6,277 bases of DNA from a virus (IMGVR_UViG_2713896736_000008), one strand, 5' to 3'. Shown: positions 3,074 to 6,232, counted from the stretch's first letter. A program made the numbers and translations. Notes: generated by a model from the sequence alone, not told the origin.

Positions 3074-3479
3074 NNNNNNNNNNNNNNNNNNNNNNNNNNN
3101 NNNNNNNNNNNNNNNNNNNNNNNNNNNNNNNNNNNNNNNNNNNNNNNNNNNNNNNNNNNNNNNNNNNNNNNNNNNNNNNNNNNNNNNNNNNNNNNNNNNN
3201 NNNNNNNNNNNNNNNNNNNNNNNNNNNNNNNNNNNNNNNNNNNNNNNNNNNNNNNNNNNNNNNNNNNNNNNNNNNNNNNNNNNNNNNNNNNNNNNNNNNN
3301 NNNNNNNNNNNNNNNNNNNNNNNNNNNNNNNNNNNNNNNNNNNNNNNNNNNNNNNNNNNNNNNNNNNNNNNNNNNNNNNNNNNNNNNNNNNNNNNNNNNN
3401 NNNNNNNNNNNNNNNNNNNNNNNNNNNNNNNNNNNNNNNNNNNNNNNNNNNNNNNNNNNNNNNNNNNNNNNNNNNNNNN
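3074..3479. other. 406-nt run of N (masked or unresolved sequence)
   Basis: Read directly. It hides the 3' end of the ORF at 3480-4051 and the 5' end of the exonuclease ORF. Every X run in the six-frame track comes from this block. Confidence 1.
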
Positions 3480-4051
3480 TCTGCCTGAATTTCGGGCCAT
3501 TTGGCACCAGGCTTACATTTATGCTTAACCCACCCGATGGCATGCAGCTTAAGCTCCGGATACATGGCGTTAACTTCTGGCATTTTCATCAACGCTTCAA
3601 CGATATGTCCGTCGAATGTTGCCATGTCTTCCTGCAACAATTCCTGCGCGCTAATCACCATATCAACGGTGATGTTTTCACATGTGTCGAACTTAACCAT
3701 GACAGCGTTCTGTACTTCAGGGGCCAGCTTGTCAAAAGCGACGTTCATCGGATCGGATTCAGTCTCAACCGGGACAAAGGAAGCAGCCCCCTCATCCCAG
3801 CGGTTTTCCTGCATATATTCAGCATCCCAGGAATCGAGGGCAGGGCGGGGTATACCGGGTTTATCCTCGCAAACAAGAAATTTATAAGCGCAGTCCTGAG
3901 CAGCCGGATAATGCTCCAGGAATTGCCAGTGAAATTTTGCGCGGGCGCGACGTTCATCACCGGCTTCAATGGCAGTGGCTACAGCGACTGCACCTTCTTC
4001 CTTTATTGCCTGTTCGTCCGGAATGGCGGCGCAAATAAAGACTTTACTCAT
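3480..4051 (-). CDS. Hypothetical prophage protein, at least 190 aa, 3' end hidden in the N run; positional equivalent of Qin ydfE (equivalence is tentative)
   Basis: ATG at 4051-4049 with GAGG Shine-Dalgarno 9 nt upstream (AATGAGGTAAAACAAA-ATG). Protein-like translation (MSKVFICAAIPDEQAIKEEGAVAVATAIEAGDERRARAKFHWQFLEHYPAAQD...). Sits immediately downstream (in transcription order) of ydfD/dicB. Reading frame differs from the exonuclease ORF, so with the N run at its stated length these are two genes. Confidence 0.7.
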
Positions 4052-4143
4052 TTTGTTTTACCTCATTACAGATTTAAGGGTGAACAAATCCCTGCCATTG
4101 CTGGCATATAAGAATGAAATCGGATGTTTATTACGGAACTGTT

Positions 4144-4335
4144 TTAAAGACCTGCCGGGATTTCGTTATTATCATGGTGAATAACTTTATCGACAGGGTA
4201 ACAGTTACCGGGAATTTTCTGTTCGGTTGCTGCAGTCACACACTCCTGCATTGTCCTGTGAACACTGACTGCAATATCAACTGGCTCTCCGGAAACAAGA
4301 AAAACTGTCAGAACAAGTGCAAATGCTGTATTCAT
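4144..4335 (-). CDS. ydfD: YdfD-like small membrane (lysis) protein, 63 aa
   Basis: ATG at 4335-4333 overlaps the dicB stop TGA (4334-4332) as ATGA, implying translational coupling. N-terminus MNTAFALVLTVFLVSG is a single hydrophobic helix. Size and position directly downstream of dicB match ydfD of the Qin prophage. AAGGA Shine-Dalgarno 8 nt upstream. The track's longer 81-aa form (start 4389) and an ATG at 4344 are alternative starts. Confidence 0.68.
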   Translation of the reverse strand: MNTAFALVLTVFLVSGEPVDIAVSVHRTMQECVTAATEQKIPGNCYPVDKVIHHDNNEIPAGL

Positions 4336-4520
4336 TGCCAGCATCCTTTTTGTATCGGACGTAAACGGGCCAGCATTGAAAGAATGCATATTTTATTTAA
4401 TAACTCCCGTTCGTGTTTTCTCTTGTTAATGGCATCTTCAGTAAATACAGGGTTACTGATAGTGACACCAATTTCAAAACAACCTTCAGACGTATTAACG
4501 TTTGGTAATAACGTTTCCAT
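4332..4520 (-). CDS. dicB: Cell-division inhibitor DicB homolog, 62 aa
   Basis: Translation METLLPNVNTSEGCFEIGVTISNPVFTEDAINKRKHERELLNKICILSMLARLRPIQKGCWQ is near-identical, by recollection, to E. coli K-12 Qin DicB (MKTLLPNVNTSEGCFEIGVTISNPVFTEDAINKRKQERELLNKICIVSMLARLRLMPKGCAQ). GAGGA Shine-Dalgarno 7 nt upstream of the ATG at 4520-4518. The track ORF 4332..4625 extends this frame upstream to a GTG. Confidence 0.88.
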   Translation of the reverse strand: METLLPNVNTSEGCFEIGVTISNPVFTEDAINKRKHERELLNKICILSMLARLRPIQKGCWQ

Positions 4521-4689
4521 TATCGCGTCCTCAACAATGAATTTTGTGATGCGGTGCCTGGTGCCTCCAGGTGACGTTAACCAGTTAACAATTAACGCCG
4601 GATACAGAGAATCCACCCATAACACTGTTTTTAGCTTTAACTGTTCCGCGTGCGCTCAGCCGCATTCACTGCATCACAAAATTCACTTT

Positions 4690-4745
4690 AAAAAGGGCGG
4701 ACATCAGTTCATGGGCAAACAGATGCCGCCAAACGTCACCAGAAA
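4690..4745 (-). ncRNA. dicF: DicF small RNA homolog (about 56 nt) ending in an intrinsic terminator
   Basis: Minus strand reads UUUCUGGUGACGUUUGGCGGCAUCUGUUUGCCCAUGAACUGAUGUCCGCCCUUUUU. The 5' part UUUCUGGUGACGUUUGGCGG matches DicF as recalled from K-12. The 3' part forms a 9-bp stem with one bulged A (GGCGG(A)CAUC at 4696-4705 paired with GAUGCCGCC at 4722-4730 on the + strand) followed by U5 (4690-4694). Location just upstream of dicB matches the dicF-dicB arrangement. Confidence 0.72.
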
Positions 4746-4746
4746 A

Positions 4747-5078
4747 TTGATAACAGAGGGCGTTGCAGCGGGGTTGTCACTTAAGCGTATGGTCAACCTG
4801 ACAACCCGGTGTCCTCAACGGGGAAGGAATAACCCCGCCATACTTACCGCTGCGCCATTTCGCGGAGTGCCACAACCGGAAGCGCACGGTCGACGAAAAT
4901 TTAACGACAGGCTATCTATGAACCAGCAACCTCGCCGTGCGCTTTCGCGTTATGCTCTGACTTTTCAGAGAAATATCCTTTCAGTAAACTGTCAGTGCCG
5001 GATGTTCACCCGTGTCCGGCGCACGCACTCCACTTCACCCGTGGAGAACTCCTTAATTACCAACCCTCAGGAGGGTGA
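4747..5078 (-). promoter_or_regulatory. GC-rich, ORF-poor, hairpin-dense segment upstream of dicF; candidate structured precursor/leader RNA or regulatory region
   Basis: No minus-strand ORF with a usable start; stops are dense in all three minus frames. Hairpins on the + strand numbering: 4771-4779/4799-4807 (9 bp), 4819-4823/4833-4837 (5 bp), 4876-4889/4935-4948 (13 bp with one G-U), 4995-5004/5013-5022 (10 bp with G-U pairs), 5028-5033/5041-5046 (6 bp). Short motifs repeat within it (see findings). Confidence 0.4.
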
Positions 5079-5312
5079 ATGTTAAAATCAACTCTTATTG
5101 CTAAATGCCTTTATCAAAATCGCATGGTAAGCAGCATTTCAATAGGCGAGTCTGCAGTTAAAAGTATTTTCGAAGAGTACTTTCCCGGGCATGATTTTAA
5201 TAAATGGAATACCAAATTACCGCCAGCAGTTTCAACGCGTATTCTGAAAGCAACCGAAAGAGCAAGTACAATTCGCGTTAACTATTTCATTAAAGATTTG
5301 TGGGATCTTTGA
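5079..5312 (+). CDS. Hypothetical small protein, 77 aa, on the strand opposite the surrounding operon
   Basis: ATG at 5079 preceded by a strong Shine-Dalgarno AGGAGG (5069-5074, 4-nt spacer). AT-rich codon usage contrasts sharply with the GC-rich sequence immediately upstream. Its 3' end overlaps the convergent 135-aa gene by 23 nt. No family recognised. Confidence 0.55.
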   Translation: MLKSTLIAKCLYQNRMVSSISIGESAVKSIFEEYFPGHDFNKWNTKLPPAVSTRILKATERASTIRVNYFIKDLWDL

Positions 5313-5697
5313 TATCCACAGAGCCTAAAGTATGTGCATATGGATGTGCTATTATGCGCCCTCGCAGATTTGCATCATTTTCTAAATTCACTGAACGAAA
5401 CAGGGCATCAACAAGGCTCTGTACAATGCAAAGGCAATCGAAGACTGTCGCCGTTTCTGTTTTGATTGATGAAAGAACATGGCCATTCACGCAAACAGAA
5501 ATTACCCGTTTATTAACATCGCTTTCCTGCTTTTGATTATCAGAACCATATAGCCCAGAAAAAGCATTGCGCACATTACGAACCATATTATCGATGGTTT
5601 CTTTTTCTGCGGTACTAAGGTCAAGAGTAGCCAGTTGTGAACGAACTATATTCGATGCCATTTCCTGTAATGGCGTTGGTAAATCTTTAAATTCCAT
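5290..5697 (-). CDS. Hypothetical protein, 135 aa
   Basis: ATG at 5697-5695 with GAGG Shine-Dalgarno about 7 nt upstream, only 22 nt downstream of the 72-aa gene stop (operon-like). No helix-turn-helix or other motif recognised. Confidence 0.65.
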   Translation of the reverse strand: MEFKDLPTPLQEMASNIVRSQLATLDLSTAEKETIDNMVRNVRNAFSGLYGSDNQKQESDVNKRVISVCVNGHVLSSIKTETATVFDCLCIVQSLVDALFRSVNLENDANLRGRIIAHPYAHTLGSVDIKDPTNL

Positions 5698-5719: not shown

Positions 5720-5938
5720 TTAACGTGGGTATGTAATCATTCTGGCAATGCTTAATGCCGCTGCTTTTTCCAGATTGGTGATATCCTGCTCCAGAGCGGA
5801 CAGATTTTCAGCCTGCTTAGCCCTGGCTTCATTGGCCCATTTCAGGTCCTGCACCGCCTTAATTTTCTGGTGCATCCACTCATAAAGTTCATCATCGGTA
5901 TAGTCTGGCGCGATGATGACGGGGTCTCGTTTCTGCAT
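5720..5938 (-). CDS. Hypothetical small protein, 72 aa, predicted helical/coiled-coil
   Basis: ATG at 5938-5936 with a strong Shine-Dalgarno AAGGAG 4 nt upstream. First gene of the leftward gene string in this window. Occupies the position of the small ydfA/B/C-type ORFs of Qin, but its sequence is not confidently recognised. Confidence 0.7.
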   Translation of the reverse strand: MQKRDPVIIAPDYTDDELYEWMHQKIKAVQDLKWANEARAKQAENLSALEQDITNLEKAAALSIARMITYPR

Positions 5939-5970
5939 GTCGGCTCCTTGTGGTTAGCGTTGCCTGCTTT

Positions 5971-5998
5971 TTAACCACGTCAGGCGAGGTGGTATCCT
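5971..5998 (+). promoter_or_regulatory. Candidate sigma70 promoter for the zinc-ribbon gene in the divergent intergenic region
   Basis: TTAACC (5971-5976), 16-nt spacer, TATCCT (5993-5998), about 35 nt upstream of the ATG at 6032. Hexamers are weak (4/6 each); by eye only. Confidence 0.3.
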
Positions 5999-6031
5999 CT
6001 GAGGGGTCTGTTACTCGAGAGGAAATTGGTT

Positions 6032-6232
6032 ATGAATACAATCAAGTTTTCTTGCCCAGAATGTGGTGGCGAAGTCTTTGACACATCCTTTAAGCCGCAG
6101 GGCTCTGACAGTTTCGCGGGAGCCATCTGCAAAAATTGTGGTCACCTTGTAACTGAAGATGAGTCCTCGCAGTTCGATGACGAAATCGTTGACAATATCT
6201 TCGGTGCACTCACCAGAGACTTTCTGAAGTAA
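6032..6232 (+). CDS. Small zinc-ribbon protein with acidic C-terminal tail, 66 aa
   Basis: ATG at 6032 with GAGAGG Shine-Dalgarno 9 nt upstream (the track begins at an in-frame TTG at 6026). Two CxxC pairs (CPEC and CKNC, 22 residues apart) followed by an acidic tail EDESSQFDDEIVDNIF. Divergently transcribed from the 72-aa gene. Confidence 0.65.
   Translation: MNTIKFSCPECGGEVFDTSFKPQGSDSFAGAICKNCGHLVTEDESSQFDDEIVDNIFGALTRDFLK

Follow-up and report, generated by a model that had tools for sequence, protein, structure and literature searches.

A conserved pair of convergent, overlapping prophage genes in a variable cassette slot of Escherichia coli

Two small genes that face and overlap each other in the early region of a lambda-like prophage are the subject of this account. 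The DNA concerned (IMGVR_UViG_2713896736_000008; 6,277 nt, referred to at its full length as the window) corresponds by sequence match to prophage Sp9 of Escherichia coli O157:H7, which is integrated at ompW, and the same region is present in 'PPompW' phage records and in phage Evi. One of the two genes, here termed A (ECs1762, 5079..5312, + strand), is an open reading frame (ORF) of 77 codons that starts with ATG and runs rightward against a leftward operon. Its last 23 nt (5290..5312) are also the end of a leftward gene of 135 codons, here termed B (ECs1763, WP_000394552.1; 5290..5697, − strand), which is recognized by its ORF, by annotation, by its matches to PHROG families and in alignments A5 and A6; the shared nucleotides encode ...IKDLWDL* on the + strand and ...IKDPTNL* on the − strand. 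A first-pass annotation, made by a model from the sequence alone, had picked out the rightward ORF and its convergent overlap, both of which are borne out by ORF calls, and had credited A with the strongest Shine–Dalgarno sequence of the region: the AGGAGG at 5069–5074, 4 nt ahead of the ATG, is indeed the sole full AGGAGG on either strand of the window. That annotation had also remarked on an abrupt switch from GC-rich to AT-rich DNA. There is such a drop at the start of A (GC 0.536 in 4745–5078 vs 0.363 in the ORF), but it is not confined to that ORF, continuing through B (0.39–0.40), so that the compositional island is the A/B pair.

The 77-codon ORF is a genuine gene, far beyond what chance would provide. 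The A protein matches the hidden Markov model of phrog_10348, a phage family of unknown function that is also matched by distant paralogues of A, over residues 1–77 of 77 (E 1.1e-47). Homologues of the same length, with 55–72% identity, are found in Klebsiella, Dickeya, Xenorhabdus, Salmonella, Morganella, Yersinia, Serratia and Proteus, and a profile search of 1.84 billion representatives (E up to 0.001) gave a family of 163 clusters at 50% identity, mostly of 74–79 aa, extending across Enterobacterales and beyond. Pairwise ratios of nonsynonymous to synonymous substitution (dN/dS) in the + frame lie between 0.0 and 0.34, so that A is under purifying selection, and an AlphaFold2 (AF2) model gives a compact five-helix domain with a mean predicted local distance difference test score (pLDDT) of 96.8. 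It is on the low dN/dS, the wide occurrence of same-length homologues and the confident model that the case for a real rightward gene, antisense within a leftward early operon, is founded. It was not, as had been thought, an unrecognized protein, being annotated in RefSeq as hypothetical protein WP_000920491.1 (ECs_1762 in strain Sakai), classified in PHROG and, as described below, detected among proteins associated with RNA.

The model of A has no relative among known folds, and the known RNA-binding domains (Hfq/Sm, CsrA, ProQ/FinO, KH, S1, CSD, Rop, ARM) were matched neither by its sequence nor by its fold. PDB sequence profiles gave nothing for A or B, Pfam gave no match for 74 members of the A family, the PF14163 SieB domain was absent from the Pfam results for A and B, and neither protein was matched in PADLOC-DB 2.0 at E up to 10. 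A is predicted to be a soluble helical protein (grand average of hydropathy, GRAVY, −0.13; that of B is −0.17), with four arginines among its 77 residues and no arginine-rich motif. One public source labels the 77-aa protein (5079–5309, +) a dGTP triphosphohydrolase, a label that is supported by no result obtained here.

B matches phrog_1363 over its full length (E 4.8e-47), and its residues 55–128 also match phrog_23433 (E 1.7e-08), so the PHROG matches divide it into N-terminal and C-terminal families. The latter corresponds to what we call the B-domain (residues ~60–135 of ECs1763; 5290..5520, −), the significance of which becomes apparent from other genomes. Genomic context was compared for nine lineages (Proteus, Photorhabdus, Serratia, Dickeya, Yersiniaceae and four phage contigs from metagenomes); in every one of them the A homologue is convergent and overlapping with a leftward ORF of 77–104 aa, and these stand-alone partners, which match phrog_23433 with E down to 5.7e-28, are homologous to each other and to the B-domain (shared motif VNG..V..I.T..A.A.DYL...LE.EAN.SGRTI.H...GS). 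From these homologies B is seen to be a fusion between an N-terminal module that, as will be seen, is constant in E. coli prophages and a domain that elsewhere is the separate partner of A.

An automated check of the pair, covering the loci of the nine lineages and 80 IMG/VR loci, yielded 105 loci with an A ORF, many of them near-identical E. coli copies and about 30 from other taxa. A convergent B homologue was present in 98 of the 105, including every intact phage locus; of the seven without one, one is cut by a contig end and six are outside phages. In 84 loci the two genes overlap by 23 nt, and in 96 of the 98 paired loci by 20–35 nt, the remaining two having a broken A; the arrangement is retained down to 28% identity of A. 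In L005 and L112 B is intact while A is broken. Prophages of Serratia, Dickeya, Proteus and Yersiniaceae carry the same pair, and in phage loci B lies within an early operon adjoining genes of the cI/Cro type, with A opposing that operon; in two loci (L027 and L028) it is the other early operon that holds the pair, with a cro-like gene on one side and a cII-like gene on the other. Hence A is not the single inserted gene that had been envisaged, but one half of a conserved convergent module, of which the other half is the C-terminal part of B.

Among E. coli prophages, comparison of sequences shows the A/B pair to be one of the alleles found at a variable cassette slot. The whole pair is present in 645 of 5426 complete E. 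coli genomes (about 12%), with ~850 more matching only the edges of the pair, and it does not belong to the conserved dicB operon set of Qin (ydfABC-dicF-dicB-ydfD): the Qin prophage of K-12 has no cassette, and its ydfC is joined directly to a conserved, GC-rich 334-nt dicF leader that in the window occupies 4745..5078, between dicF and the cassette (alignment A4). Other Rac- and Qin-like prophages have different convergent overlapping pairs at the same position. The gene is therefore mobile, occurring in some syntenic prophages and not in others, a point that the first-pass annotation had proposed to check. The rightward ORFs of these alternative cassettes, of 91, 92, 73 or 63 aa and unrelated in sequence, begin directly after the same leader and ribosome-binding site (...CCCTCAGGAGGGTGAA-ATG). 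Their leftward ORFs, of 106, 133, 124 or 201 aa (with overlaps of 23, 41, 11 and 23 nt), have the N-terminal ~50 residues (MEFKDLP...GLY) in common with ECs1763, while their C-termini differ. Among E. coli prophages no fewer than six different C-termini follow this constant module (~50–55 aa; 5533..5697, −; alignment A6), and nucleotide homology with the other cassettes resumes near window position 5549–5585. With a constant leader and ribosome-binding site at one end and a constant N-terminal module at the other, the variable unit therefore runs from ~5079 to 5549–5585, comprising the rightward gene and the C-terminal part of the leftward gene. The constant N-terminal module is acidic, with two predicted helices. 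An overlap of exactly 23 nt is found in three unrelated E. coli slot cassettes (the window, L020, L113 and L114 being compared) as well as in the majority of A/B pairs from other loci, the nucleotides that overlap being different.

The leader that precedes A in the window (4990..5078, +), and that is common to unrelated cassettes at the slot, is predicted to form three hairpins. The fold of 4990–5095 has a z-score of −2.97 on the + strand and +0.47 on the complementary strand, and in the last predicted hairpin CUCCU pairs with the AGGAG of the Shine–Dalgarno sequence. The ~80 nt ahead of A have an identity of 75–90% in other genera, even between loci whose A proteins share only 28%, and a covariance model of this non-E. 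coli leader (R1) detects it ahead of A homologues in Serratia, Yersiniaceae and Proteus prophages. Unexpectedly, R1 also matches the window itself at 5953–6034 (~80 nt, 27.3 bits), directly ahead of a second rightward ORF described below, and in the locus L025 the leader occurs three times (3425–3503, 4172–4247 and 4808–4890), before the A homologue, weakly (17 bits) before sieB, and once before a 12-codon ORF remnant. The R1 leader has the look of an expression element that can be used repeatedly, for different rightward genes of early-left regions. In its second helix, the 3′ arm of which abuts the Shine–Dalgarno sequence, both partners have changed in four of eight pairs and the paired fraction of cells is 91.7%, in an alignment that was fitted to the model and so biases the count toward structure. 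An invariant GTGGTATCTT within the R1 leader resembles an extended −10 element. The leader of ECs1762 is not detected by R1, so that homology between the two leaders is no more than an impression gained from one hairpin. An Rfam search of the leader was negative, both for the window and for six further loci. Scans revealed no terminator in the A/B overlap and no LexA box near A.

That the A protein is actually made comes from the work of others. Zammit et al. (NAR 2025, doi 10.1093/nar/gkaf749, PMC7618764) used TRAPP, which surveys the UV-crosslinked RNA-associated proteome, on a Sakai stx(-) strain grown in MEM-HEPES to an optical density of 0.8 with no inducer. ECs1762 was among 443 significantly enriched proteins (at least 2-fold, false discovery rate < 0.05) and was one of four island-encoded proteins that were retested, the tagged protein giving polynucleotide kinase (PNK)-labelled crosslinked RNA in excess of the sfGFP control; the authors noted that ECs1762 had no detectable RNA-binding domains. 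On this published evidence ECs1762 is produced in cultures of enterohaemorrhagic E. coli (EHEC) given no inducer, which requires a rightward promoter that is independent of the repressed early operon. The protein is thus associated with RNA, yet has neither a recognizable RNA-binding domain nor a structural relative. Searches of the literature by accession, PHROG identifier and locus tag gave only typing papers, a phosphotyrosine proteome and the TRAPP paper, and ECs1763 is already in use as a PCR marker in typing panels for Shiga toxin-producing E. coli (STEC) and EHEC. In the broad sense of the term A may be described as a moron: it is present in some prophages and absent from others, it has its own ribosome-binding site and leader, and its product has been reported by others in uninduced cultures.

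Some clues to function come from A homologues that lack a B partner. Such orphans were found outside phages in Psychrosphaera, in a Cyclobacteriaceae contig (L016 60–3872), beside an MmeI-like type IIG restriction-modification enzyme, in three Colwellia plasmid contigs (L017–L019 4360–5100), where the next gene downstream encodes an FRG-domain protein with a match to PDC-S15, a PADLOC candidate, and in a further contig (L031 4297–7234), beside genes for SIR2, MazG and a dNMP kinase. Among the loci that do have the pair, L025 has a PF14163 sieB gene adjoining it, in the same orientation as A and opposite to the early-left genes. We take the hypervariability of the slot, the sieB beside the pair and these orphan neighbourhoods as hints, though not more, of a defence-like role.

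Leftward genes for integrase, excisionase and exonuclease occupy the left part of the window, where a run of Ns (3074–3479) masks the middle of the exonuclease gene, so that ORF lists across that interval are masking artefacts. Next come a DUF1482 gene and dicB (4332..4520, −; Pfam PF05358, E 1.7e-37, and annotation). Downstream of B in the leftward operon is a copy of the DicF small RNA (sRNA) gene (4695..4744, −; Rfam RF00039, E 3.3e-07), the score of which (43.5 bits) is under the Rfam gathering score of 48 and the terminal stem–loop of which is unlike that of the K-12 copy (alignment A4); between dicB and dicF there is an STnc100-like match (4501–4706, −) with 33.5 bits against a gathering score of 47. 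Immediately upstream of B in the leftward operon is the ydfC-like gene ECs1764 (5720..5938, −; ORF and annotation). The first-pass annotation had all neighbours of A running leftward, which does not hold: an ORF of 66 aa for a CxxC...CxxC zinc-ribbon protein (6032..6232, +) matches NCBIfam NF047912 (the ECs_2282 family) with 57.3 bits against a cut-off of 37. The Sakai annotation has, in the same DNA, a leftward ORF of 99 aa (ECs_5719) instead. A frame of 323 codons on the + strand (4114–5085), antisense to the DUF1482 gene, dicB, dicF and the leader, was set aside as a shadow ORF, related loci having only 114–206 codons there. The sRNAs AgvB and AsxR were dropped from consideration since the window has no Rfam match to them, and so was Pas, the Pas paper making no mention of dicF, dicB or ydfC.

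How might all this be put together? A and the C-terminal domain of B are best explained as a conserved two-gene accessory module of temperate phages, placed next to the immunity switch. Within that framework we favour, tentatively and at rather less than even confidence, the idea that A is an accessory factor expressed in lysogeny and that B, expressed from the early operon, switches A off. A would have its own promoter and act in the lysogenic state. Loss of repressor would bring transcription of the early operon through B and antisense through A, and this read-through might shut A off both by collision of polymerases and by formation of a duplex at the 3′ ends; the same derepression would yield the B protein, which may counteract A. 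As to what A might do in a lysogen, we can only speculate that its role is most likely the exclusion of, or defence against, other phages, or some related action at the level of RNA, in which case B could conceivably render the prophage immune to its own factor in the lytic cycle. We prefer this account because the slot is hypervariable, the timing of A appears to be lysogenic, L025 has sieB next to the pair and oriented as A is, and orphans are found in defence-like neighbourhoods. This is as far as the earlier suggestion of an accessory function can be followed: such a function is plausible, but no known defence or anti-defence family was matched, and the pair would hardly be a dedicated switch on dicF and dicB expression, for reasons given below.

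Several observations weigh against this interpretation. Searches of Pfam, NCBIfam and PADLOC with A and B gave nothing significant, and the defence context of the orphans comes from three loci. The B-domain occurs without A in the 201-aa variants, where it is retained with a 66-aa extension alongside a different rightward ORF, and so is not strictly dependent on A. No match of at least 9/12 to the sigma-70 consensus was found in 4745–5078 (+), upstream of A; a candidate promoter (TTTTCA-17-TAAACT, 8/12; 4962..4990, +) was picked out by eye, below the threshold of the scan. Enrichment in the TRAPP experiment extends to DNA-binding proteins such as cI (Zammit et al., 2025; PMC7618764). The AF2 model of B, made from a shallow alignment, has a pLDDT of 46, and was unusable and kept out of the fold search. 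Finally, ECs1762 itself is basic (pI 9.46) but its family is mostly acidic (median pI 5.7, with 10 of 74 members above 8), so that RNA binding is perhaps a local property rather than the function of the family; the argument that a basic protein must be a binder of nucleic acid is thereby ruled out as a family trait. The unusable model of B and this discrepancy in charge are among the reasons for the low level of confidence stated.

Other explanations have to be weighed against the same evidence. A might act on the prophage's own transcripts, as an RNA-binding brake on early-left expression: in the lysogen it would bind the leaky pL-type RNA that is the precursor for B, dicF and dicB, promoting its decay or termination and so reinforcing the silencing of toxic early genes, and on induction B would titrate it. 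The crosslinking of ECs1762 to RNA (PMC7618764) agrees with this, as do the position of A within the early operon, where toxic genes (dicB or kil) follow downstream, the antisense geometry and the expression without inducer. Yet most members of the A family are acidic, the orphans outside phages have no early operon to regulate, and both K-12 Qin and the prophages with other cassettes manage without A, and we consider this explanation unlikely. A lower probability is to be given to the suggestion that the basic 77-aa helical protein, adjoining regulatory genes, is a regulator that binds DNA, for example at the slot promoter or the immunity switch, its RNA signal being incidental. The TRAPP enrichment of cI already mentioned would fit such a role, and the orphans precede defence genes, as small regulators often do. 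If instead the two proteins counted for little and the switch were purely cis-acting, rightward transcription of A would collide with leftward transcription towards dicF and dicB, as would be true for any rightward promoter situated here. However, both proteins are under purifying selection, with conservation that extends to 28% identity; some prophages have the pair without a detectable DicF (Rfam finding none in six other pair loci scanned) or DicB (none being annotated in those pair loci for which gene calls exist); its place in L027 and L028 is between cro-like and cII-like genes, in the other early operon; and K-12 Qin makes DicF without any pair. We therefore think a cis-acting dicF/dicB switch very improbable, and the least likely of the explanations considered here.

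There remain two proposals in which the proteins act on the host or on each other. The layout and partnership are reminiscent of toxin–antitoxin (TA) or addiction modules, in which B (or A) would be harmful and the other would neutralize it, the 3′ overlap adding control by antisense RNA as in type I systems. Prophages of Bacillus contain type I systems, txpA/RatA and bsrG/SR4, with just such a convergent, 3′-overlapping layout, A and B co-occur strictly in phages, and a constant N-terminus with a variable C-terminus and a co-varying partner recalls polymorphic toxin–immunity loci. The resemblance to type I modules is that both are prophage-borne and convergent, with 3′ ends that overlap by tens of nucleotides, the A/B overlap being known from genes rather than transcripts; the difference is that A and B are both conserved soluble proteins, neither being a small hydrophobic peptide, as the GRAVY values indicate, and that both strands encode protein, leaving no place for a hydrophobic toxin or a non-coding antisense antitoxin. 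Nor does the pair have the form of a type II module, a co-directional bicistronic operon with recognizable domains, as A and B are convergent and neither has a TA domain, no TA family having been matched in Pfam, NCBIfam or PADLOC. In addition, A may be broken while B is intact, the B-domain exists without A, and the accessible parts of the TRAPP paper, in which ECs1762 was expressed from pBAD in Sakai, do not mention toxicity (PMC7618764). An addiction module is in our judgement distinctly improbable. Slightly less probable still is the idea that A, B or both inhibit an immune or other protein of the host, in the manner of ral, gam and kil, which other lambdoid phages carry in this operon. 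The location among early-left accessory genes and the hypervariable slot would suit this, and small, mostly acidic helical proteins are typical of protein inhibitors; but a gene that is antisense to the early operon and expressed without induction has the wrong timing for an infection factor, and no match to known anti-defence families was found in Pfam or BFVD. We consider it improbable that this is the function of the pair.

It is useful to set our preferred account, of a lysogenic factor with an early-operon antagonist, beside systems that are better understood. SieB of lambda, P22 and Rac, which serves superinfection exclusion, is likewise an accessory gene by the immunity region, embedded in the early-left region, and in L025 it is next to the pair. 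It is expressed from the prophage and is paired with a self-protecting product, Esc. A has no relation to it in sequence or fold, however, SieB being a membrane protein of ~190 aa, and Esc is internal to sieB, not a convergent gene. The Nun protein of HK022 is an RNA-binding exclusion protein that is expressed in the lysogen. Like A, it is a small, lysogen-made prophage protein encoded beside the repressor, with the association of ECs1762 with RNA (PMC7618764) as a further likeness; unlike Nun, A has no arginine-rich motif and no Nun homology, and Nun has no convergent partner gene. The BstA/aba prophage defence system (PMC8585504), also next to a lambdoid repressor, shares the logic that we propose, a factor active in the lysogen together with the prophage's own antidote, but the BstA protein is large, the bstA gene contains aba as a DNA element, and A and B have no PADLOC match. 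With polymorphic toxin–immunity cassettes the slot has in common that the ~50-aa N-terminus of the leftward gene is constant, while its C-terminus varies from strain to strain in step with the partner ORF; in those cassettes the partner is downstream and co-directional rather than convergent and overlapping, and B has neither a toxin domain nor an N-terminus related to secretion. The oop RNA of lambda, finally, is a convergent transcript over the 3′ end of an early gene (cII) by the switch, a position comparable with that of the pair in L027 and L028, although oop is a 77-nt non-coding RNA and A encodes a protein.

What was known of this locus before, then, was that gene A had been annotated, clustered in PHROG and flagged as RNA-associated (PMC7618764). 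We could find no description in the searchable literature of the convergent A/B module, of a slot with a constant leader and a constant N-terminal module, or of a type of leader shared by several rightward genes. It is rare for two protein-coding genes to retain a convergent 3′ overlap over a range of identity that extends from 100% to 28%, and such conservation suggests that the overlap may itself be functional. In a bolder version, which seems to us possible but on balance unlikely, A would define a new small helical fold, of which it would be the founding member and which would bind RNA, at least in E. coli, and A and B would form a new kind of two-protein phage switch, the overlap making lysogenic A and lytic B mutually exclusive at the RNA level and the proteins being antagonistic; the E. 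coli slot would then be a hypervariable hotspot of factor/anti-factor pairs, for example exclusion systems with built-in self-immunity, expressed from a shared leader that sequesters the Shine–Dalgarno sequence. The layout of the slot, which immediately precedes the cell-division inhibitors DicF and DicB, is of the kind in which functions of exclusion, defence and counter-defence tend to be located, and A would take its place there among the lysogeny-expressed prophage accessory genes that are embedded against an early operon.
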